Assembly: GCA_039934415.1 (NCBI GenBank)
Contig: JBDTME010000001.1
Location: 1-47,495 of the forward strand
Reading direction: 5' to 3'
DNA length: 47,495 bases
DNA from: Patescibacteria group bacterium
GTDB taxonomy: Bacteria > Patescibacteriota > Microgenomatia > UBA1400 > PJMF01
Shown here: in pieces, positions 18,045 to 26,899 of the stretch
Layout: the number at the start of each line of letters is the position of its first letter
Position numbering within the stretch: position 1 is the first letter of the stretch
Notes under the pieces: model-generated
What the model was told of the DNA's origin: nothing
Seen by the model: only the letters and a program-made list of their open reading frames with translations
The model's database searches: none
Program-made: the position numbers and the translations under genes

Positions 18045-18437
18045 ATGTCAGACAAAAAAAAGATTTTTCTCGTTGAAGACGATGATCGGTTATTACAACT
18101 CTATAACCAATTACTCGTGGCAGATGGTTATGAAGTAGAAACATGCAACAACGGTTTGGATGCTTTGACCAAAATGCAGGAAGGTGGTTTTGATTTGGTG
18201 CTGCTTGATATCATGTTACCAGGAAAAGATGGTTTGGAAATTCTGGAAGATATTCAAAAGAAAAAACCAAAAAATCCTATTCGCTCGATTATCTTACTCA
18301 CGAATCTCGCAAAAAATGAAACTATTGCGCGTGCCCTAAAAAACGGTGTTGACGGGTATATTATCAAAAGTCGTTACTCACCAGAGGAATTTCTCGCTGA
18401 AGTAAAAAAAACACTTGAAGGAAAACCGATTTCTTGA
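18045..18437 (+). CDS. Single-domain response regulator (REC only)
   Basis: LVEDD, LLDIMLPGKDG, LTN and YIIK. Confidence 0.93.
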   Translation: MSDKKKIFLVEDDDRLLQLYNQLLVADGYEVETCNNGLDALTKMQEGGFDLVLLDIMLPGKDGLEILEDIQKKKPKNPIRSIILLTNLAKNETIARALKNGVDGYIIKSRYSPEEFLAEVKKTLEGKPIS

Positions 18438-20521
18438 TCTCAATGACTGCTGCCCAACGTCTTCAATTACATGAAGACCCAGATCTCTATAAAAAAGTAT
18501 TTCAACTCTCTCCAGAGGCTATTGTCATCATTGACCGTACTGGCCATATCATAGAGATGAATGATCGGATGACTGAATGGTTGGGATACCCAAAAAAAGA
18601 CGTACTCCATAAGCACCTCCTCCAATTACCATTTCTGACACTCAAAAATAAACAGCTACTGATCAAGAACTTTTTAACACGAATATCTGGTAAAGAACGA
18701 TCAGAGTATCAAGCTGAATTTTTGACAAAGGATGGACATGTTCGGATAGGCAAGATCAAAGGCGCATTGATTCGAGATGCCTCAGGTCATGTTGTGGCTG
18801 ATTTGGCAATGATCACTGAAGCGACCCAAGAACTCCGAGAAGAAACAGCAATTCGGAAAAAAGAAGAAATTCTGGAAGCAGTGAACTACTCTGCCCGTAC
18901 CTTCTTAAAATCACAAGCAAATCAAGCAGATTATGAAAAAGTACTCAAATCAATCGGTGAATCTGCTTCTGCTAGTCGAGTAGTATTGGTGATTAATGAC
19001 CTCTTGGGTCAACGTTACGAGTGGGCTGCCCCAGGAATTGCATCAATTGTCTTAGATAAGAAATATCCCAATCTTTTTCAAAAAGCAAACGAGTTATCAG
19101 AGTTTTCTAAGAAGCTGGAGGACAATAACATTATCTTCGGTATTGAATCAGATTTTGACAAAGATGTTCAAGCTGTTTTAAAGCGATATAAAATAAAGTC
19201 GTTTGTTCTACAACCCATTTTTGTCAACAAAAAGTGGTGGGCCTACTTGTGTATCCATGACTGCTTAGAAGAAAGAAAGTGGTTGTCAGAAGAGATTGAT
19301 GCGTTGGTTGTCGCATCCAAAATCATCGGTGCTGCGATGGAGAAAAACTTGGTTGAACTGAAACTGCGAGAAACTGTTGAGTATTGGAGACATGAAAAAG
19401 AGCGAGTGACGGAAGAAATCGCAAATACCCAAAAATTCAAGCAAGCAGTGGATAGTGCTACTGACGGGGTGGTAATTACGACAGTTGATCGAAAGATCAT
19501 TTATATTAACCGTGCATTAGAAAACATGACTGAGTACTCGTCGGCAGAAGCAGTCGGAAAAAATTCTGATTTTCTGACAATAGCTAAGACACCTCATCAA
19601 ATTTTAACGAAGTTATGGGAAACACTTGATGCTGGTCAACCGTTCAACTCTGATGAAGTTGTGATGAGTAAGAAGGATGGAACTGAACTGCCAGTTCGGT
19701 TATCTGTGTTTGCGATCAATGAGAAAGGCAAACCTCAATTTTTTGTTGGAATACTTGAAGACATCACACGACGTCGTGAAATTGATCGCATGAAAACTGA
19801 ATTTATCTCGATTGTTTCTCACCAACTCAACACTCCTCTATCAGCCATGAAATGGTTTTTGGAATTGCTACAGATGGGAAAAGCCGGACCTCTCTTACCG
19901 AAACAACAAGAGTTTGTCCAAAATTTGATCGATTCTAATATTCGAATGATTGCGTTAGTACGGTCATTACTCAATATTAGTCGCATTGAATCAGGCCGGA
20001 TAATTATCGATCCTCACTTGACTGATATACGGGTGTTAATTGATGATGTCTTAAAAGAAGTAGCACCTTTTTTTGAGAAGAAGTCTCAGAAGATCAATGT
20101 GAATATCGATGAAAATCTGTCAAAAGTGATGCTTGATCCTCGTTTGATTAGGAATGTGTACTTAAACCTGCTTACCAACTCCTCAAAATACTCACCAGAA
20201 GGAACGGAAGTAGATATCAATATTTTTCAAAAAGATGACGAGCTTGTTTCTCATGTTATCGATCATGGATATGGGATACCCAAAAATGATCAAGATAAAA
20301 TCTTCACTAAATTTTTTAGAGCAGCGAATGTTGTTCGATTGGAAGCTGACGGCAGTGGTTTAGGTATGTACTTGGTCAAAATAGTGGTAGAGTCATCAGG
20401 TGGGGAAATTACATTGAACAGTGAGGAAAATAAAGGTACAGACGTCGGTTTTGTACTGCCACTTAAGGGTGTGAAACCAAAATCAGGTGATGTCTTCCTT
20501 GATCAAAACGCTTATTCGTGA
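18434..20521 (+). CDS. Soluble PAS-GAF-PAS-HisKA-HATPase sensor kinase
   Basis: Two PAS-like segments, H-box SIVSHQLNTPLS, NLLTNSSKYS, DHGYGI and GSGLGM. Alternative ATG at 18443. Confidence 0.92.
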   Translation: MISMTAAQRLQLHEDPDLYKKVFQLSPEAIVIIDRTGHIIEMNDRMTEWLGYPKKDVLHKHLLQLPFLTLKNKQLLIKNFLTRISGKERSEYQAEFLTKDGHVRIGKIKGALIRDASGHVVADLAMITEATQELREETAIRKKEEILEAVNYSARTFLKSQANQADYEKVLKSIGESASASRVVLVINDLLGQRYEWAAPGIASIVLDKKYPNLFQKANELSEFSKKLEDNNIIFGIESDFDKDVQAVLKRYKIKSFVLQPIFVNKKWWAYLCIHDCLEERKWLSEEIDALVVASKIIGAAMEKNLVELKLRETVEYWRHEKERVTEEIANTQKFKQAVDSATDGVVITTVDRKIIYINRALENMTEYSSAEAVGKNSDFLTIAKTPHQILTKLWETLDAGQPFNSDEVVMSKKDGTELPVRLSVFAINEKGKPQFFVGILEDITRRREIDRMKTEFISIVSHQLNTPLSAMKWFLELLQMGKAGPLLPKQQEFVQNLIDSNIRMIALVRSLLNISRIESGRIIIDPHLTDIRVLIDDVLKEVAPFFEKKSQKINVNIDENLSKVMLDPRLIRNVYLNLLTNSSKYSPEGTEVDINIFQKDDELVSHVIDHGYGIPKNDQDKIFTKFFRAANVVRLEADGSGLGMYLVKIVVESSGGEITLNSEENKGTDVGFVLPLKGVKPKSGDVFLDQNAYS

Positions 20522-20564
20522 TGTAGTATACAAGAAACTTTTTTGTTTCATTTGAAAGGTATTT

Positions 20565-20930
20565 ATGAAAAAAGTGTTAGTCGTCGAAGACGATAAATTT
20601 TTAGCCAATGCATATCGAGCTGGATTTGAAGGTGAAGGCCTCGAGGTAAGTCTAGCCTTTGATGGTGAGGAAGCGCTGGCAATGGCTAATCAAACAAAAC
20701 CAGATGTGATTATTTTAGACATTTTAATTCCTAAAATTGATGGATTTAGCGTACTCCAGCAGTTGAAGGCGAATAAAGAGTTAGAGCACATTCCTGTCAT
20801 CATTGCTTCAAATCTTGGTCAAAAACAAGATATCGATAAGGGATTGGAATTGGGAGCGACCGATTTTATTATCAAAAGTGAGTCGTCAGTGACAGAGATT
20901 TTGAATAAAATCAAAAACGTATTGAAGTAA
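20565..20930 (+). CDS. Single-domain response regulator (REC only)
   Basis: VVEDD, ILDILIPKIDG, ASN and FIIK. Confidence 0.93.
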   Translation: MKKVLVVEDDKFLANAYRAGFEGEGLEVSLAFDGEEALAMANQTKPDVIILDILIPKIDGFSVLQQLKANKELEHIPVIIASNLGQKQDIDKGLELGATDFIIKSESSVTEILNKIKNVLK

Positions 20931-21012: not shown

Positions 21013-22854
21013 TTATCTGGAAACTGCTTTTTGCAAATCTCGTTTGCGTAGTCGCAAATGATGTGGAGTAACTTCTAGCAACTCATCAGGACCGATGAAG
21101 TTTAAGCATTGTTCAAGTGATAACTTCACTGCTGGTGCAATTCTCACCAAAACATCTGCATTACTTCGAACGTTTGTTGCTTTTTTACCGCGAGTTGCAT
21201 TCATTACCATGTCTTGTGGACGAGTATTTTTGCCGACAATCATGCCGCCATACACTTCTTCTCCTGGTTCAACAAAGGTGTCCCCTCGCTCTTGAATGTT
21301 GGAGAGACTATAAGTGATCGCAGTTCCAGTGTCGGATGAGACAATAACGCCATTTCGCATCCAAGGTGTATCTGGACCTTTTGGTTCATAACCTAATGGC
21401 ATTGAATGAATAAGGGCACTTCCTGAAGTGGCGGTCAAAATGTCATTTCGATAGCCAATCAAGTTACGTGTTGTAATTTTGAACTCAAATTTAACACCAT
21501 TCTTACCTGTGACCATATTGATCAGTTCACCACCTCGTTGTCCCATACTGGTTGTAACAAATCCAATAAACTCTTCCATGACCTCAATCGTGACTTTTTC
21601 CCAAGGTTCCATCGTCACACCGTCGACTTCTTTAAAGACGACTTCAGGACGAGAAACAGAAAACTCGTATCCTTCTCTGCGCATCGTTTCAATCAAAATG
21701 GACAAATGCAATTCACCTCGACCGGCCACGATGAAAATGTCAGCTGTTGCTCCAGGACTGATTCGAAGACCGACGTTTGTTTCAAGTTCTTTAGTTAATC
21801 GAGCTCCGATTTGACGAGAAGTTGTGAACTTGCCATCTTTTCCAACAAAAGGTGAATCCGACACTGAGAACTGTATTTGCACGGTTGGCTCAGTAATATC
21901 GAGTTTACGTAAACCTTCTGGGGCGGTTGGATCACAAAGTGTGTCACCGATTTTGGTTTCTGGAAAACCTGTCAGTGCAATGATATCGCCTGCTGATGCT
22001 GAATCGACTTCAACTTTATTTAAGCCGAAAAAAGTAAATAAATACTCAACTCGAGCCATTGTAAGAGGATCATCACCTCTCATGATTTGCAATTGTTCAC
22101 CTTTTTTTACTTGACCACGTTGAATTTTACCAATCACATAACGACCTTTGTAGTTATCAAAGTCAAGTGAAGTGATCTGCATTTGGAATGGACCTTCAGG
22201 TTGTACATTTGGTGCCGGAATAGTGTCTACGATAGTTTGAAAAAGAGGAGTTAAATCTGTACTATCAGTGATTCTGAGAGAATGTTCTGGGTTTGATTCG
22301 ATGACTTTACCAACAATGCCATTTCTACCAATGCCGTAGAGAATCGGGAATCGAAGTTGATCATCTGTAATTGCAAGGTCGAGGAATAAGTCGTTGACTT
22401 CTTCGATGACTTCATCTGCACGCTGGTCTTTTCGGTCGACTTTATTAATTAAAACAATTGGTTGCAGTCCATTTTTGAGTGCGAGTGAAAGAACGTAACG
22501 AGTTTGTGAGAGAACACCCTCTGCAGCATCTACTAATAGGATGCAGCCATCAGCCATGTTTAAGACGCGTTCTACTTCGCCTGAAAAATCAGCGTGGCCG
22601 GGAGTATCTAAGATATTGAGTTTATACCCATTCCAATGCACGACAGTATTCTTGGCTAAAATAGTCACACCTCTTTCTCGTTCCAAATCATTGGAGTCAA
22701 GAATGGTGGTTTGTTGCATCTCTGCTTGGTGCTCAGCAAATACATGGGCCTGTTTCAACATGCCATCAACCAAGGTAGTTTTACCGTGGTCAACGTGAGC
22801 AATAATAGCGATGTTTCGAATGTGTGCGATATCCATATCTATCCATTTTTCCAT
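21013..22854 (-). CDS. typA: Translational GTPase TypA/BipA
   Basis: RNIAIIAHVDHGKTTLVD, DTPGHADFSGEVER, NKVD and GRGELHLSIL. Alternative start at 22836. Confidence 0.97.
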   Translation of the reverse strand: MEKWIDMDIAHIRNIAIIAHVDHGKTTLVDGMLKQAHVFAEHQAEMQQTTILDSNDLERERGVTILAKNTVVHWNGYKLNILDTPGHADFSGEVERVLNMADGCILLVDAAEGVLSQTRYVLSLALKNGLQPIVLINKVDRKDQRADEVIEEVNDLFLDLAITDDQLRFPILYGIGRNGIVGKVIESNPEHSLRITDSTDLTPLFQTIVDTIPAPNVQPEGPFQMQITSLDFDNYKGRYVIGKIQRGQVKKGEQLQIMRGDDPLTMARVEYLFTFFGLNKVEVDSASAGDIIALTGFPETKIGDTLCDPTAPEGLRKLDITEPTVQIQFSVSDSPFVGKDGKFTTSRQIGARLTKELETNVGLRISPGATADIFIVAGRGELHLSILIETMRREGYEFSVSRPEVVFKEVDGVTMEPWEKVTIEVMEEFIGFVTTSMGQRGGELINMVTGKNGVKFEFKITTRNLIGYRNDILTATSGSALIHSMPLGYEPKGPDTPWMRNGVIVSSDTGTAITYSLSNIQERGDTFVEPGEEVYGGMIVGKNTRPQDMVMNATRGKKATNVRSNADVLVRIAPAVKLSLEQCLNFIGPDELLEVTPHHLRLRKRDLQKAVSR

Positions 22855-22975
22855 TTTTCAAGAAAGTCAATTATACGCTGGAAAAGCTGGTTTGCCAATC
22901 TAGAGAAGTATTGCCATTCGTCACGATACACTCTCGATCATTGACTCCTGAGTCCAAAAGGTCTTGAATGAAGTA

Positions 22976-23923
22976 ATGATAGACACCTTTAACGCTCCCA
23001 CTCCAATGCAATCAGGCCCGACTCCTTTGCCTACACGACCTGATCCTTGCAAGGACGGGACCTGTGATAAGTGTCTTAAAGGTGGAATGCCGATGAAGAA
23101 GGAAATTCTGTCATTTTTATTGATCTTATGTATTGGTGCAATGACGGTATTGTTTGTGTTGTGGGTAAATGAGAAACGCCAGCTCTCTCAGCTGACCAAA
23201 CAAAATGCAAGTATGTCACAAGATTCCACCACTTCAGAAATGGATGCTGATAAAGTTGTCAGCACTGCTGTTCCCAGTCCTAAAGTTATGAGTCAACTTA
23301 TTGATTTACCTAAACCGAACTTCAAAGGTGTTTTAAGCGTTGAAGAAGCTCTTTTTACTCGTCGAAGTCGTCGAGAGTTTTCATCTCAACCAGTTTCTCA
23401 GTTTGAACTCGGTCAAATATTGTGGTCTGGTCAAGGTGTGACTGATGACTTAGGTCATCGTACTTCTCCATCGGCTCGCGAAGGTTATCCATTTACGGAG
23501 TACGTTGTCGTTCGTAATGTAGAAGGTCTTCAGCCTGGTTTGTATCAATATCTGCCAGAGAAACACCAAATCGGTTACATCGGATTGGCAAATGCTGGGG
23601 AATTATTAACAGCCGCAGGAGTTCAAGATAACTCCCAAAATGCTCCCGTTGTGATTGCCTTAAGTGGAGCGATTGGGAAGATGGTCAAGAACTTTCCGAC
23701 GAACGCAACTGAAGTGACGATGATTGAAGCCGGTCACATTGGTCAGAACATTTACTTGCAAGTGGAATCAATGGGAATGTCCACCGTCGTGACGGCGGGA
23801 TTTGATGTTGCTAAAGTTGGTCAGGCTTTGCAGTTAGATCCATCTGAGACTGTAGTCTATTTAATTCCATTGGGTCATCGATCAACTGTTACACCAACTC
23901 AATCCCCGGAAAATCAACTATGA
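22976..23923 (+). CDS. Membrane-anchored SagB/ThcOx-type nitroreductase (FMN) domain protein
   Basis: TM segment ILSFLLILCIGAMTVLFVLWV, then RRSRREFS, RTSPSA and IEAGHIGQNIYL. TTGACT-17-TTGAAT-6-ATG favours a start at 22976. Confidence 0.85.
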   Translation: MIDTFNAPTPMQSGPTPLPTRPDPCKDGTCDKCLKGGMPMKKEILSFLLILCIGAMTVLFVLWVNEKRQLSQLTKQNASMSQDSTTSEMDADKVVSTAVPSPKVMSQLIDLPKPNFKGVLSVEEALFTRRSRREFSSQPVSQFELGQILWSGQGVTDDLGHRTSPSAREGYPFTEYVVVRNVEGLQPGLYQYLPEKHQIGYIGLANAGELLTAAGVQDNSQNAPVVIALSGAIGKMVKNFPTNATEVTMIEAGHIGQNIYLQVESMGMSTVVTAGFDVAKVGQALQLDPSETVVYLIPLGHRSTVTPTQSPENQL

Positions 23924-24594
23924 AGAAATATATTACTTTAGTGAGTTTCACGTTATTTCTTGGATTGCTTTTTGTCTCTACTCAAGCTGTTTTTGCCCAA
24001 GCCAAACAGTTTACGACTGAAGAGTTGAAGCAGTTTGATGGAAAGAGTGGTCATAAGGCTTATTATGCCTACGAAGGTAAAGTCTACGATGTGACAGGTA
24101 GTCGGCTTTGGAAAGAAGGTGAACACTACGGGTTGCAGGCAGGTGAAGACTTAACTGGGAAAATGACAAGTGCTCCACATGGGACTGAAGTCTTTGCTGG
24201 ATTTGAGGTCATGGGGACATATGGTGCAATGCCAACAACATCAGCAGTACAAACCCCGGTCGTCACTCAATCTCCACTTGGTGTCCCCTCAACAACTCCT
24301 CAACGGGCATGGTTTGAAAGTCCTATTCGTTTGCTGAACATTTCAATTTTGGGGTGGACTGGCATTGTATTAGGTATCTTCTTTGTTTTAACCTTTGCCA
24401 CTTGTTTTGCGATGCCTTGGGCAAAATTACCTTTGCCATGGGTTGGCTCTCGACCAGGTCCTGATCCATTAGATGCTTCATTCCGACACATGACTTGGAC
24501 GTATATTCACAAATATTTCGTTTGGATTACCGTTATTCTCGGTATCGTTCACGGCATCTTAGGATTCATGCAAATACTGGGTATCTACCTCTAA
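23920..24594 (+). CDS. Cytochrome b5-like heme domain with signal peptide and C-terminal His-bearing TM helices
   Basis: FTTEELKQFDG, GKVYDVT, GEH...AGEDLT...APHG; the TM helix HKYFVWITVILGIVH has two His 14 residues apart. Confidence 0.85.
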   Translation: MKKYITLVSFTLFLGLLFVSTQAVFAQAKQFTTEELKQFDGKSGHKAYYAYEGKVYDVTGSRLWKEGEHYGLQAGEDLTGKMTSAPHGTEVFAGFEVMGTYGAMPTTSAVQTPVVTQSPLGVPSTTPQRAWFESPIRLLNISILGWTGIVLGIFFVLTFATCFAMPWAKLPLPWVGSRPGPDPLDASFRHMTWTYIHKYFVWITVILGIVHGILGFMQILGIYL

Positions 24595-24599
24595 CTGAG

Positions 24600-26264
24600 T
24601 TAGTTGATGTATAACTTTTCCTTGTAATCTTGAAGCATACGAGTGGCACTATATTTTTCACGAATCGTTTGTGCTGTATCGATCATTCTTTGCAACCATT
24701 GTTGAGGAATGGCATTTTGATCCCTGTCTAAAAACAACGGAATGATTTCTTTTTCAATTGTGGCATACAGTGATTCAGAAATATGATCATTGTCCAATAT
24801 CCAACCCATATTTTCCCAAGAAACTTCCCGTACCCACCCATCGTTTGTACTGCACTGTAGGACGCCGTTTACGCCAGCTTTCATGCCACTCGTTCCACAT
24901 GCCTCAAAACCCTCGATTGGAGTGTTTAGCCACACATCACTTCCCTGGACAAGGTACTCTGCAACCTCAAGATTGTAATTAGGTATGTATGCGATACTTT
25001 CAGAAAATATGGGATTTTGAGTGATAGAGTACACATGCTTGATCATGTCTTGAGCTTGCTGGTCATGTGTATGGCCTTTACCTGAAAATACTAAGTACAC
25101 AGGCAAGTTGGCGGAATTGAGAATGTGTTCTAGCCGTTCAAGCAACCAAAACAACACCTCTGGCCTTTTGTACTGAACGAATCTTCTCGACCAGGTGATA
25201 ATGAGTCCATTGCTGGAAAAGGTCTTGCCAGTCTTTGCTTTGATGTATTTTACAAGTTTGTCTTTGGATTCTTGGTGAGCATGCCAAAAATCAAGTGGGC
25301 TAGGAGGAGCTTTTTCGTTTAAGTTCCACACTTGGTTTTTTTCTGCTGCATACCAGCGAGGCAAGAAAATCCCATTTGTTATCGACAACAGTCGATAGTC
25401 TGGCCAGATTGCTGTCGCTTTTTGCGCATGATACTCACTGACAGCATTGGTTTTTCCTGCTGTACGTAGACCAAGAAAGGTCATGGAAAACAGAGAGCTG
25501 CCGGGAATATTGCCTAGATCTAATAACTTTGAGATGACGAGGGCTCGTTCTTCTGCGAATGATGCCAGAAAAACGGTGACCAGTTCGTTGGTAAAGTTAT
25601 CATTTCCAGCTGGGATGAGGGTGTGATTGGTGAATCTTAGTTGCTCTTTTCCTTTTTCAAGTGCTTCATTGAAACTCATTCCTAATTTACCCATCAAATC
25701 TGCAATATGTTCAAAAGCACAGAATGCCGCATGACCTTCGTTCATATGAATAAATTGAGGAGTAAATTTTAGCGCTTTGAGTAACCGCATTCCTCCGATT
25801 CCCAAAACGAGCTCTTGGGCCAACCGATGTTCTTTATCACCTGAGTACAAACGATCTGTGATATTTTGAAACTCCGTAGTATTCCCTACCAGGTTGGTGT
25901 CTAATAAATACAAATTGAGGTGCTGATATTCTTTTTTCCAGACCTGGATTTTGAGCAGTTTTTCTTGAAATGGAATAGTAACAATGACTCTCTCGCCTGT
26001 TTCATCCACGACAGGGATCAGACCAGCTTGTTGCGGAGAGATTTGTTCGATCGTGTTTGTAATCTCATTACCTTCTAATGCCTGTTTATAGACTGACGAG
26101 TACAAGAGTCCGATTCCTACTACGGGAAAGCTTTGTTGGTCAGCTTCTAGCAGAAAATCCCCTGCCAGTACTCCTAATCCACCTGAGTAGATATGGACAT
26201 CGTCTCGTAGAGCGAACTCCATACAAAAATAAGCTACAGTTGGTTGTGTATTAGCTTCTGGCAC
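24600..26264 (-). CDS. glgP: Alpha-glucan (glycogen) phosphorylase, short form
   Basis: YSGGLGVLAGD, HMNEGHAAF, RRFVQYKR and the PLP site EACGTSGMKA. Confidence 0.92.
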   Translation of the reverse strand: MPEANTQPTVAYFCMEFALRDDVHIYSGGLGVLAGDFLLEADQQSFPVVGIGLLYSSVYKQALEGNEITNTIEQISPQQAGLIPVVDETGERVIVTIPFQEKLLKIQVWKKEYQHLNLYLLDTNLVGNTTEFQNITDRLYSGDKEHRLAQELVLGIGGMRLLKALKFTPQFIHMNEGHAAFCAFEHIADLMGKLGMSFNEALEKGKEQLRFTNHTLIPAGNDNFTNELVTVFLASFAEERALVISKLLDLGNIPGSSLFSMTFLGLRTAGKTNAVSEYHAQKATAIWPDYRLLSITNGIFLPRWYAAEKNQVWNLNEKAPPSPLDFWHAHQESKDKLVKYIKAKTGKTFSSNGLIITWSRRFVQYKRPEVLFWLLERLEHILNSANLPVYLVFSGKGHTHDQQAQDMIKHVYSITQNPIFSESIAYIPNYNLEVAEYLVQGSDVWLNTPIEGFEACGTSGMKAGVNGVLQCSTNDGWVREVSWENMGWILDNDHISESLYATIEKEIIPLFLDRDQNAIPQQWLQRMIDTAQTIREKYSATRMLQDYKEKLYIN

Positions 26265-26362: not shown

Positions 26363-26755
26363 TTAACGATCGTTATCACCATAAGAGCGTCGTTGGTAAC
26401 CACCGCGATCACCACCTCGGTCACCGCCACGATCATTTCCACCACCTCGACGATCGTTAAATCGTGGTTGGCGTGGTTGTGGAGGTCGAGCAATAGAAGC
26501 GAAAATTTGTCGTTCCATTACTTCTTTACCATTGAGACCTTCAACAGCTGCGTTTGCTTGATCTGCAGTAGCGTAAGTAACAAAGCCAAAGCCTTTTGAA
26601 CGGCCACTGAACTTATCAGTCATGACGATGCATTCGACTACGTCACCAAACTCGGCAAAAGCTGCCTGTAGGTCTTCGGAGGTCATCCGATAATTAAGAT
26701 TCCCAACAAATAATTTTGCTGGATTTGCTGCGGGAGCAGCGGAAAAGTCTGACAT
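26363..26755 (-). CDS. RRM RNA-binding protein with RGG tail
   Basis: RNP2 LFVGNL, RNP1 KGFGFVTY and DRGG repeats; GGGAG lies upstream of ATG 26755. Confidence 0.93.
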   Translation of the reverse strand: MSDFSAAPAANPAKLFVGNLNYRMTSEDLQAAFAEFGDVVECIVMTDKFSGRSKGFGFVTYATADQANAAVEGLNGKEVMERQIFASIARPPQPRQPRFNDRRGGGNDRGGDRGGDRGGYQRRSYGDNDR

Positions 26756-26899
26756 GGAGACTCCCAAAGTTCTTTGCACATCTTACAACTTACTTAAGGA
26801 AAACCTTGGCAGTGAAGAATGTATGAAAGATACTAACTACTAATAATCCGGCTATTATAACACACATCCAGTCTGAAGACCACCTGATAGTACTCGAGC

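Follow-up and report, generated by a model that had tools for sequence, protein, structure and literature searches.

Does this patescibacterial operon encode a route by which electrons cross the cytoplasmic membrane? Patescibacteria (CPR) are seen as symbionts that live by fermentation and have no respiratory chain; the operon bears on the open question of their redox balance and their chemical interaction with hosts. It consists of two genes, A and B, which the first-pass annotation had read as an extracytoplasmic redox module: a flavin enzyme behind a membrane anchor, followed by a cytochrome b5-like protein. Throughout this text, the window denotes the whole stretch of DNA that was analysed (47,495 nt).

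Both genes lie on the plus strand and were confirmed as open reading frames. Gene A (22976..23923) encodes 315 aa when read from the ATG at 22976 and 319 aa from the in-frame TTG at 22964; either may be the start, whereas the other features claimed for the two genes were confirmed. Gene B (23920..24594; 224 aa) comprises a signal peptide, a cytb5M domain, a linker, and a module of two transmembrane helices with two histidines (the 2-TM di-His module). As had been claimed, the genes overlap by 4 bases (ATGA, 23920-23923), the ATG of gene B overlapping the TGA of gene A. An internal ATG at 23096, located behind AGGTGG, was considered as a start of gene A that would leave the cysteine stretch untranslated; we rejected it because homologues have L, V, or F at the Met positions and conserve the Cys motif. 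The features of both genes are not a product of chance, since they are conserved across 96 aligned homologues. Promoter and terminator scans returned sites no commoner than in shuffled sequences, and scanning the window for Rfam families and tRNAs gave no match. The sequencing runs listed comprise four DNA runs from one rhizosphere study, with no RNA among them.

The FMN nitroreductase fold postulated for gene A was borne out. Its product matches the Pfam family Nitroreductase (PF00881; 76.8 bits, cut-off 23.5) over residues 132-305 of the 319-aa form (23357..23878, plus strand) and narrowly passes the NCBIfam model of the SagB-type dehydrogenase domain (TIGR03605; 82.2 bits, cut-off 78.4). 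Among its 281 homologues, the nearest named ones are patescibacterial proteins labelled 'SagB/ThcOx family dehydrogenase'. Profile searches matched a group of stand-alone FMN nitroreductases, namely 8CQS (BT_0217), 3HOI (BF3017), 3HJ9, and 3EO7, with E-values from 3e-39 to 1.5e-30, compared with about 4e-18 for ThcOx. Foldseek searches with the model of P0228, a natural A-B fusion described below, gave TMt values of 0.79-0.87 against SagB-type and nitroreductase structures (8CQS: 0.87, rmsd 2.5 A). The fold and the FMN-type motifs are common to gene A, the FMN nitroreductases, and the SagB/ThcOx/McbC/BmdC azoline oxidases.

In the gene A alignment, the columns RRSxR, PS, and E-x-GH-x-x-(Q/E)-N are invariant (R129, R130, S131, R133, P165, S166, E251, G253, H254, and N258 in 32 aligned A sequences). 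We take the R-x-S-x-R type motif, together with the PS and GH-x-x-QN segments, to be of the FMN-phosphate-binding type, and FMN is the predicted cofactor of the domain. If the domain is exported by Sec, it must acquire its FMN outside. The ApbE flavinylation motif ends in S/T-G-A-S/T; it is absent from gene A, whose sole similar site reads SGAI (SAAY in homologues). An ApbE gene is located about 133 kb from the pair.

N-terminal to the nitroreductase domain lies the only hydrophobic helix of gene A (I44-V64 in the 315-aa numbering, followed by NEKR; 23105..23167, plus strand), which corresponds to residues 63-93 of P0228 (pLDDT 77-89). It is preceded by a conserved and presumably cytoplasmic motif, C25-x4-C30-x2-C33-L-K-G-G-M-P-M-K-K-E (23048..23104, plus strand), with Cys codons at 23048, 23063, and 23072. 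The alignment consensus is C-x4-5-C-x2-C-[LVM]-K-G-G-x-P-x-K-K-E. The motif occurs in each of the 19 genome loci in which the N-terminus of A is complete. Among the gene A homologues listed, a CxxC stands N-terminal of RRSxR in 61 of 120, and about 15 have no Cys at all. The tail cysteines are spaced C-x4-5-C-x2-C; single-chain relatives have CxxCxxC. Other Patescibacteria encode anchored SagB-like proteins with neither the Cys motif nor a b5 partner (5 loci read).

The product of gene B begins with a signal peptide of about 27 residues (23920..24000, plus strand), supported by its sequence (MKK, a hydrophobic stretch, and AQA) and by alignments, in which A26-Q27-A/G/S is nearly invariant; by the AXA rule, cleavage presumably occurs there. 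Residues 28-102 (24001..24225, plus strand) form the b5 heme domain predicted by the earlier reading. The Pfam family Cyt-b5 (PF00173) matches residues 32-91 with 27.0 bits (cut-off 23.7). The domain is 51% identical to the cytb5M structures 6VZ6 from Methanococcoides burtonii and 6NZX from Hadesarchaea (Tamarit et al. and Teakel et al., bioRxiv 2021), with phmmer E-values of 2.4e-21 and 2e-18 and Foldseek TMt values of 0.89 and 0.86, respectively. In the VIA structural comparison, 6VZ6 ranked first (Z 13.2, rmsd 1.4 A over 75 residues), followed by the MAPR-type structures 1J03 (Z 8.7) and 4X8Y (Z 8.5), with classical b5 at 8.0 or below. Sequence and modelled structure thus assign the heme domain to the cytb5M type, closer to MAPR proteins than to classical b5.

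Its predicted axial ligands, H69 (24124-24126) and H87 (24178-24180), are each present in 96 of 96 homologues, and the hydrogen-bonding S61 is conserved in at least 90%. They align with H42/H61 and S34 of 6VZ6 and 6NZX, both crystallised with a non-covalent, H42/H61-ligated heme. Heme binding by gene B is thus predicted from its heme-bound homologues. The crystallised proteins are soluble and of about 77 aa, whereas the domain of gene B is secreted, tethered to a 2-TM module, and paired with a flavoenzyme. The tether is a flexible Pro/Thr/Ser-rich linker (24226..24309, plus strand) of variable length, with pLDDT below 50 at residues 106-115. Elsewhere, cytb5M domains are fused to DUF2231, to CopD with a CxxCH motif, and to an unnamed His-rich multi-TM domain.

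The third part of gene B, the 2-TM module (24310..24591, plus strand), consists of TM1 (residues 141-166), a cytoplasmic loop, and TM2 (residues 195-222). TM1 has the invariant residues G148, F155, F159, C162 (24403-24405), and P166-W167, and the loop reads PW...LPW.G..PG.D..D. Two CAC codons in TM2 encode H197 (24508-24510) and H211 (24550-24552), 14 residues apart as previously noted. The conservation of the two His, on which that reading depended, is nearly complete: H197 and H211 each occur in 95 of 96 gene B homologues (C162 in 96/96, H190 in 77/96), and every one of the 34 module representatives has an H-x13-H pair, detected by script in 31 and by eye in the other 3.

The module also exists on its own, in proteins of 69-97 aa, and can therefore be regarded as independent. 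It is rare, with only 38 representatives among 1.84 billion proteins; stand-alone forms are found in Chloroflexota and archaea. The b5-fused and stand-alone forms have 17 invariant columns in common. Of the 34 module representatives, 27 have cytoplasmic Cys clusters as well, which lie in the N-terminal tail in 13/17 forms with an extra N-terminal TM helix (several of them CxxCxxC) and in the TM1-TM2 loop in 14/17 stand-alone forms.

Searches for relatives of the module gave leads below threshold. Family members matched Ni_hydr_CYTB (5/22; best E 2.8e-4, with the TM3-TM4 half aligned), DUF4405 (6/22), and Ferric_reduct (4/22) in Pfam; the best member reached 20.8 bits, below the cut-off of 30.1, and the copy in the window matched none of Ni_hydr_CYTB (PF01292), DUF4405, and Ferric_reduct. 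The module profile found no PDB sequence at E up to 10, and hhalign against E. coli FdnI returned a probability of 0.15%. The wide VIA-align search with the TM hairpin retrieved only generic helical hairpins (Z ~7), and ESM Atlas, queried with residues 128-224, gave only unnamed clusters of 80-93 aa, whose scores did not exceed 0.80 and which we treat as no more than leads. The helical conservation moment of TM1 was reached by 72 of 5000 shuffles; that of TM2 was reached by 1444 of 5000 and is not significant.

The module has in common with two-heme membrane cytochromes (FdnI/HyaC/CybB of PF01292, DUF4405, ferric reductase/cytochrome b561) a His pair 14 residues apart in one TM helix and small residues beside the TM His. 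In two-heme membrane cytochromes b, a single polypeptide supplies the four His that ligate both hemes. Each chain of the module, by contrast, comprises two helices and only two conserved His (H197 and H211), and all scores of the module are below cut-offs. Bis-His hemes in the module would therefore need a dimer of B. To our knowledge, neither an invariant TM Cys nor cytoplasmic Cys clusters are features of two-heme cytochrome families.

The co-occurrence of the two genes, proposed earlier as a check, is strict. Gene A stands directly upstream of gene B on the same strand in all 21 genome loci with upstream DNA; another 2 of the 23 loci with full-length B end at a contig edge and were not counted. 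Three further A-B pairs were found in metagenome loci. Seven natural fusions of the nitroreductase (NTR) and b5 domains (381-395 aa) have an N-terminal TM helix and a C-terminal TM helix with a poly-Lys tail, and lack both the 2-TM module and the Cys motif (CxxC N-terminal of RRSxR in 0/7). P0228 (550 aa) is a full fusion of A and B in the order Cys motif, TM, NTR, b5, and 2-TM, and in P0229 (149 aa) the Cys motif and TM helix of A are joined straight to the 2-TM module of B, with no NTR or b5 domain.

These fusions point to a common topology. The P0228 model contains exactly three long helices (63-93, 469-490, and 514-545) and has a coil at 331-355, with no helix between NTR and b5. This would place the two domains on one side of the membrane, opposite the Cys tail and the TM1-TM2 loop. 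Since gene B carries a signal peptide, the NTR/b5 side is taken to be the outside. In the same model, the Cys-motif region has pLDDT below 50, and the whole-model pTM of 0.53 is too low for b5 to be docked confidently on the flavin domain. The predicted topology is consistent over all architectures.

Thus, the claim that the flavin and b5 domains are both extracytoplasmic agrees with the signal peptide, the seven NTR+b5 fusions, and P0228. The description of the whole as an extracytoplasmic module holds only in part, as the Cys motif is placed in the cytoplasm, away from the flavin domain, and co-varies with the di-His module. This suggests a transmembrane unit rather than a purely extracytoplasmic one.

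We propose that A and B may form one membrane complex through which electrons cross the cytoplasmic membrane, towards or away from a surface flavoenzyme; we give this reading a probability of roughly 0.45. Outward flow is preferred. A candidate cytoplasmic donor is flavodoxin or ferredoxin reduced by pyruvate oxidation. It would pass electrons to a Cys-ligated metal or Fe-S site formed by the C-x4-C-x2-C tail of A at the inner membrane face, and from there they might move to one or two b-type hemes, which a putative B dimer would hold between its H197/H211 helices. Outside, the tethered cytb5M domain would then receive them on its bis-His heme and hand them to the FMN of the SagB-type nitroreductase domain, which would reduce an as yet hypothetical external acceptor.

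The transmembrane complex is favoured by the observed synteny (21/21), the fusions, the common-side topology, and the conservation of H197, H211, and C162. The cytoplasmic cysteines follow the module, being absent together with it from the seven NTR+b5 fusions. In addition, the b5 domain is close to heme-bound structures, the weak Pfam leads point to two-heme membrane cytochromes, and cytb5M is fused to other membrane domains elsewhere. In 7 of the 21 loci, the pair adjoins genes of flavodoxin and pyruvate:ferredoxin/flavodoxin oxidoreductase, accompanied in 3 of them by ADP-forming acetyl-CoA synthetase. Six of these 7 occurrences fall into one clade and thus count as about two independent cases, and this neighbourhood is not present in the window.

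Other observations weigh against the complex. The module shows no significant similarity to cytochromes and offers two His per protomer, the moment of TM2 is not significant, the Cys-motif region is poorly modelled, and some of the A homologues listed have no Cys. FMN would have to be picked up outside by a protein with no ApbE motif, and the window has no oxidoreductase neighbours. No match to ALAD or ferrochelatase was found in the 99.77%-complete genome, so that any heme must be scavenged, as the first-pass annotation had supposed. The module-less NTR+b5 fusions and the partnerless anchored SagB-like proteins additionally indicate that the outside enzyme does not strictly depend on such a conduit.

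The same architecture would fit inward flow equally well. Here, a surface SagB-type dehydrogenase would oxidise a substrate of the envelope or the environment and pass the electrons, by way of the b5 heme and the membrane module, to a cytoplasmic Cys/Fe-S site or thiol acceptor. The TIGR03605 assignment agrees with this, as do the nearest characterised structural relatives, ThcOx (5LQ4/8PZ5), BmdC, and McbC, which are oxidases or dehydrogenases. Moreover, in flavin-b5 pairs such as flavocytochrome b2, electrons usually pass from the flavin to b5. However, no cytoplasmic acceptor is evident, cytochrome bd has no match in the 99.77%-complete genome, and the pair has no linked genes that would suggest a substrate. 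The conserved neighbours, where present, make a low-potential reductant, not an oxidant. We consider inward flow unlikely.

It is also doubtful that the 2-TM module is only an anchor, or a Zn, Cu, or Fe site of Cys and His, beneath a self-contained surface pair of b5 and NTR that would receive its reductant externally or by diffusion and act on, e.g., oxygen, quinones, nitro compounds, or metals. The lack of a significant cytochrome match and the merely generic structural hits of the hairpin suit such a role, and so do the seven fusions with a plain single-helix anchor and the SagB-like proteins anchored with no partner. Nevertheless, a mere anchor would not be expected to retain 17 invariant columns in b5-fused and stand-alone forms alike, to keep H-x13-H in every representative, or to accompany cytoplasmic Cys clusters; in its stand-alone form, the module has nothing to anchor.

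We regard a role in heme acquisition as very improbable. In such a system, the cytb5M domain would capture external heme, the His-lined module would pass or store it, and the flavoenzyme would reduce or degrade it to obtain iron. The genome encodes two b5-type proteins yet has no match to ALAD or ferrochelatase, and the heme of cytb5M homologues is non-covalent. On the other hand, their buried bis-His heme is typical of electron carriers rather than hemophores, and the neighbours of the pair in the 21 loci include no conserved transporter. We know of no nitroreductase-fold protein that degrades heme. Finally, an azoline dehydrogenase of the TOMM/cyanobactin type, with the heme protein as its accessory, can practically be dismissed. 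TIGR03605 scores above its cut-off, but the genome (99.77% complete) yielded no hit to YcaO (PF02624), and among the genes that recur in the 21 loci none is a cyclodehydratase or resembles a precursor. TIGR04511, a full-length model for peptide maturation, gives 65.1 bits where its cut-off demands 240, and the domain is placed outside the cell behind a TM helix and a cytoplasmic Cys tail, unlike in azoline oxidases.

Comparison with known systems places the transmembrane complex near, and apart from, a proposal already made for CPR. In those bacteria, cytb5-domain genes were reported in CPR-specific clusters beside ferric-reductase-like (pFre) membrane proteins, and a membrane complex was proposed (Tamarit et al. 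2021). Both systems combine a b5-type protein with a His-bearing membrane protein. In contrast to the cytb5-pFre clusters, the membrane part described here has two TM helices and is fused to b5, its partner is a nitroreductase-fold enzyme, and PF01794 has no match in this genome. The terms 'Nitroreductase' and 'SagB' are absent from the main text of that paper, and in the literature we found no description of the A-B pairing or of its small 2-TM module.

Functional analogies, with no sequence relationship claimed, are offered by cytochrome b559, where a heme is bridged between the two small TM subunits PsbE and PsbF, and by HdrDE, which relays electrons from heme b through Fe-S to a disulfide and has its membrane heme beside a cytoplasmic Cys-ligated cluster. 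In its most specific form, the proposed complex would be a minimal transmembrane wire of five cofactors: a [4Fe-4S]-type cluster at the inner membrane face, two module hemes within a B dimer, the cytb5M heme, and the surface FMN, with the cluster ligated by the three tail cysteines of A and by the invariant Cys162 in TM1 of B. Taken jointly, these details are rather improbable.

If the transmembrane complex is real, it would offer a way, open to testing, in which CPR could dispose of electrons outside the cell, reduce iron, or carry out detoxification, and would imply reliance on scavenged heme and flavin. Its Cys/di-His module would rank among the smallest units that transfer electrons across a membrane and may interest designers of membrane redox proteins. 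Should even the five-cofactor form be true, a heme scavenger without respiration would be dumping pyruvate-derived reducing equivalents on an external acceptor, possibly its host, and the module of about 85 aa would represent a new family of membrane cytochromes.

Genes A and B lie on the forward strand of the window (22964..23923 and 23920..24594) and overlap by ATGA at 23920-23923, as the first-pass annotation had noticed. Gene A encodes 319 aa if read from a TTG start, or 315 aa from the ATG at 22976, while gene B encodes 224 aa. The pair is isolated between two reverse-strand genes, which were named by reading their translations: a typA/bipA-like GTPase gene (21013..22854) and an alpha-glucan-phosphorylase-like gene (24600..26264). 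The idea that A places a nitroreductase fold behind a membrane anchor, with a cysteine stretch N-terminal to it, was borne out by a Pfam Nitroreductase match (76.8 bits, cut-off 23.5), a single TM helix and the motif C25-x4-C30-x2-C33. Additionally, A matches NCBIfam TIGR03605, the SagB-type dehydrogenase domain (82.2 bits, cut-off 78.4). B likewise has the parts ascribed to it, namely a signal-peptide-like N-terminus, a Cyt-b5 match (27.0 bits, cut-off 23.7) and a last helix with H197 and H211 14 residues apart.

About 2 kb upstream of the pair, beyond the GTPase gene, 18434..20930 encodes a 695-aa histidine kinase with a PAS domain and a 121-aa stand-alone receiver. Histidine-kinase and receiver genes recur near the pair (clusters 3 and 8, in 6/21 and 3/21 related loci), and the main text of Tamarit et al. 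(10.1101/2021.11.17.468889) reports two-component genes adjoining CPR b5 clusters. On the other side, a reverse-strand 138-aa ORF (26363..26779), RRM-type RNA-binding-like from its translation, ends in Arg/Gly/Asp-rich repeats (GGDRGGDRGG).

At E <= 0.001 B has 108 homologues, the few named ones being assigned to Pacebacteria, Woesebacteria, Cerribacteria or 'Patescibacteria group'. In an alignment of 96 of the first 101 (partial P0082 and P0097-P0100 omitted), H69, H87 and C162 are each present in 96/96, and H190 in 77/96. The histidines of the last helix are conserved as well (H197 and H211, each 95/96); the sole exception is P0094, whose match to the profile of B's C-terminal part ends at TM1. 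A scan of species-representative genomes found 23 full-length B loci, and the two genes do co-occur: in all 21 loci with upstream DNA, B is immediately preceded by a same-strand A homologue. Metagenome contigs added three more pairs. The distribution is patchy: of 301 genomes sampled evenly across the phylum, only the window's own had full-length B.

An internal start of A at 23096, behind AGGTGG, would leave the cysteine stretch untranslated; this start was refuted by an alignment of 32 homologues, in which the window's two Met positions are L, V or F in the others. The homologues share C-x4-5-C-x2-C-[LVM]-K-G-G-x-P-x-K-K-E, then the TM helix and NEKR, which identifies the stretch as translated protein at the level of sequence. 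Among the 120 listed A homologues, 61 have a CxxC N-terminal of the RRSxR motif; several of the remainder are N-terminally truncated gene calls and about 15 genuinely lack the cysteines. The motif is present in 19/19 genome loci with a complete A N-terminus. It is missing from all seven natural fusions of nitroreductase and b5 domains, which also lack the C-terminal part of B, and from five anchored SagB-like proteins of other Patescibacteria with no b5 partner nearby. In a crude comparison by longest contig, none of the approximately 15 Cys-less homologues was matched to a B homologue, against some 30 that are Cys-bearing or N-truncated. In three same-order genomes (L124, L125, L129), TM-anchored SagB-like nitroreductase proteins of 258-267 aa, with neither Cys motif nor b5 partner, are in conserved synteny with a membrane-anchored PrsA/SurA-like ORF and trmD (names from translations).

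Modelled with AlphaFold2 (mean pLDDT 86.7), B resembles PDB 6NZX and 6VZ6 (51% identity, TMt 0.89/0.86). VIA-align superposed the b5 domain on 6VZ6 with Z 13.2 and an rmsd of 1.4 A over 75 residues, followed by MAPR-type domains (Z 8.5-8.7) and then by classical b5 (Z 8.0 or less). Both structures are placed in a 'cytb5M' class in the main text of Tamarit et al. (bioRxiv 10.1101/2021.11.17.468889). The second comes from Teakel et al. (10.1101/2021.11.30.470528), passages of which describe a red protein with non-covalent heme, ligands H42 and H61, and S34 hydrogen-bonded to the heme. These three residues align with H69, H87 and S61 of B, and thus its outer domain has the sequence hallmarks of a bis-His heme-binding cytb5M, the published class to which we assign it on sequence. 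Other Patescibacteria have further b5 architectures (L009, L011, L013, L014, L007), one with a His-rich multi-TM domain (no Pfam family) before a C-terminal b5 (197-221 aa) and another with a TM anchor, rhodanese and b5 (261 aa). In organisms of other phyla, the fusion partner of b5M is either DUF2231 or a CopD-like domain that carries a CxxCH motif.

The C-terminal two-helix module of B (residues about 131-224) is an independent and rare unit. Its profile found only 38 matches in 1.84 billion representative proteins. After exclusion of P0255 and P0259 (repetitive, spurious-looking) and of the partial P0094 and P0098, H-x13-H was present in all 34 representatives left (31 by script, 3 by eye). 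Stand-alone proteins of 69-97 aa occur in four genomes of one Patescibacteria family and have 17 invariant columns in common with the b5-fused forms, among them W, G, F, C, PW, LP, G, D, D, H, F, W and H. Cysteines are found in the cytoplasmic tail of 13/17 representatives with an extra N-terminal TM helix (several as CxxCxxC) and, 1-4 in number, in the TM1-TM2 loop of 14/17 stand-alone forms, counts that come from mutually related sequences and overstate independence. Cytoplasmic Cys clusters, as predicted from sequence, travel with the module. At L004, L005, L006 and L008 (four genomes, one Patescibacteria family) the stand-alone gene encodes 85-97 aa; a further His precedes TM1 and the loop is free of Cys. 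It is always followed by two conserved multi-TM ORFs of ~152 aa and 182-207 aa that match no Pfam family, and at 2/4 loci it adjoins a class I ribonucleotide reductase beta-like gene (name from translation).

All Pfam leads for the module are sub-threshold and all point to two-heme membrane cytochromes: Ni_hydr_CYTB for 5/22 members, DUF4405 for 6/22 and Ferric_reduct for 4/22. The best Ni_hydr_CYTB match has E 2.8e-4 and 20.8 bits, where 30.1 is the cut-off, and aligns with the TM3-TM4 half of that model. The window's copy matched none of the three. A PDB sequence-profile search was empty and hhalign against E. coli FdnI gave a probability of 0.15%; the module thus has no established place among the known cytochrome families. 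It may work as such a cytochrome does.

Fusion proteins bear on how the parts are arranged. The seven nitroreductase-b5 fusions (381-395 aa) run from an N-terminal TM helix through nitroreductase and b5 to a C-terminal TM helix and poly-Lys tail. P0228 (550 aa) combines all of A and B in one chain, with Nitroreductase at 135-315, Cyt-b5 at 360-419 and the module at 455-550. In its model, for which a 65-row alignment was used, the long helices number exactly three (63-93, 469-490, 514-545), and the soluble domains are connected by a low-confidence coil (331-355) with no helix. This places the flavin and heme domains on one side of the membrane, so that the model speaks against their facing opposite sides, and the Cys tail and TM1-TM2 loop on the other. 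Lys/Arg-rich loops mark the cytoplasmic side (the positive-inside rule); together with the signal peptide of B, such loops indicate that the domain side is extracytoplasmic. P0229 (149 aa) joins the Cys motif and TM helix of A straight to the module of B and contains nothing else. By its sequence, it is a Rosetta-stone link between parts that lie on separate polypeptides in the window.

The window's genome (1.18 Mb, 99.77% complete) has no match to ALAD or ferrochelatase, as expected from the first-pass view that heme synthesis is lacking, and none to cytochrome bd or Ferric_reduct. It encodes a second b5 protein (G000:C2:943-1383; 146 aa, N-terminal TM anchor, Cyt-b5 48.6 bits), whose HEGG and HPGG-like motifs put it nearer classical b5 than cytb5M; together with gene B, this gives a heme-auxotrophic genome two b5-type proteins at the surface. 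What looks like a separate, second extracytosolic flavin system lies at G000:C1:156562-160276 (L135 6563-10277), where an ApbE flavin transferase adjoins a 150-aa lipoprotein-like ORF (no Pfam match) and a divergent RnfD/NqrB-like membrane protein; ~2.4 kb further downstream there is a flavodoxin. There is also a single UbiA-family prenyltransferase match (G000:C1:344319-345047, 81 bits). Pyruvate/2-oxoacid:ferredoxin oxidoreductase is encoded on another contig. In 7/21 related loci the pair is flanked by same-strand flavodoxin and pyruvate:ferredoxin/flavodoxin oxidoreductase genes, 3 of them with ADP-forming acetyl-CoA synthetase too; the window lacks this association. On the B tree a single clade contains six of these seven loci, and L024 has a different gene order, which suggests about two independent associations.

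Judged by computation alone, the likeliest role of A and B is to make up a compact conduit for electrons across the membrane. Electrons would pass between a cytoplasmic Cys-ligated metal or Fe-S site, provided by the tail of A and perhaps by C162 of B, an invariant residue at TM1's inner end, and one or two hemes held between the H197/H211 helices of a putative B dimer; the path would continue outside through the tethered bis-His b5M heme and the FMN of the nitroreductase domain to an external acceptor. Several points argue against such a conduit: the module has no significant homology to known cytochromes, bis-His ligation requires the putative dimer, confidence in the Cys tail of the P0228 model is low, related enzymes exist without the module, and both FMN and heme would need to be obtained outside the cytoplasm.

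Inward flow through the same conduit is a serious rival, because SagB-type enzymes are dehydrogenases. By sequence, the flavin domain of A falls within the SagB-like branch of the nitroreductase superfamily; the closest solved structures are 8CQS (BT_0217), 3HOI, 3HJ9 and 3EO7, for which the literature searched offered no functional characterisation. A role for A as a TOMM dehydrogenase was ruled out, since the window's genome has no YcaO match.

The main text of Tamarit et al. (10.1101/2021.11.17.468889), which notes ferric-reductase-like membrane proteins encoded next to b5 genes in CPR and proposes a membrane complex, does not mention nitroreductase or SagB, and a term search of Méheust et al. 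(eLife 2021, PMC8238504) returned neither nitroreductase nor cytochrome b5. Within the literature searched on Patescibacteria b5, SagB/ThcOx, nitroreductase, COG4892 and DUF2231, we found no description of the pair. The operon, the two-TM Cys/di-His module and the module's link to a cytoplasmic Cys motif all appear undescribed there.

We assign the proposed A-B conduit to a known kind, the membrane cytochromes that feed extracytoplasmic redox enzymes. Our preference for outward flow is only weak; in that direction, the conduit would let the organism, in which no respiratory chain is visible, shed the reducing equivalents that pyruvate oxidation yields.
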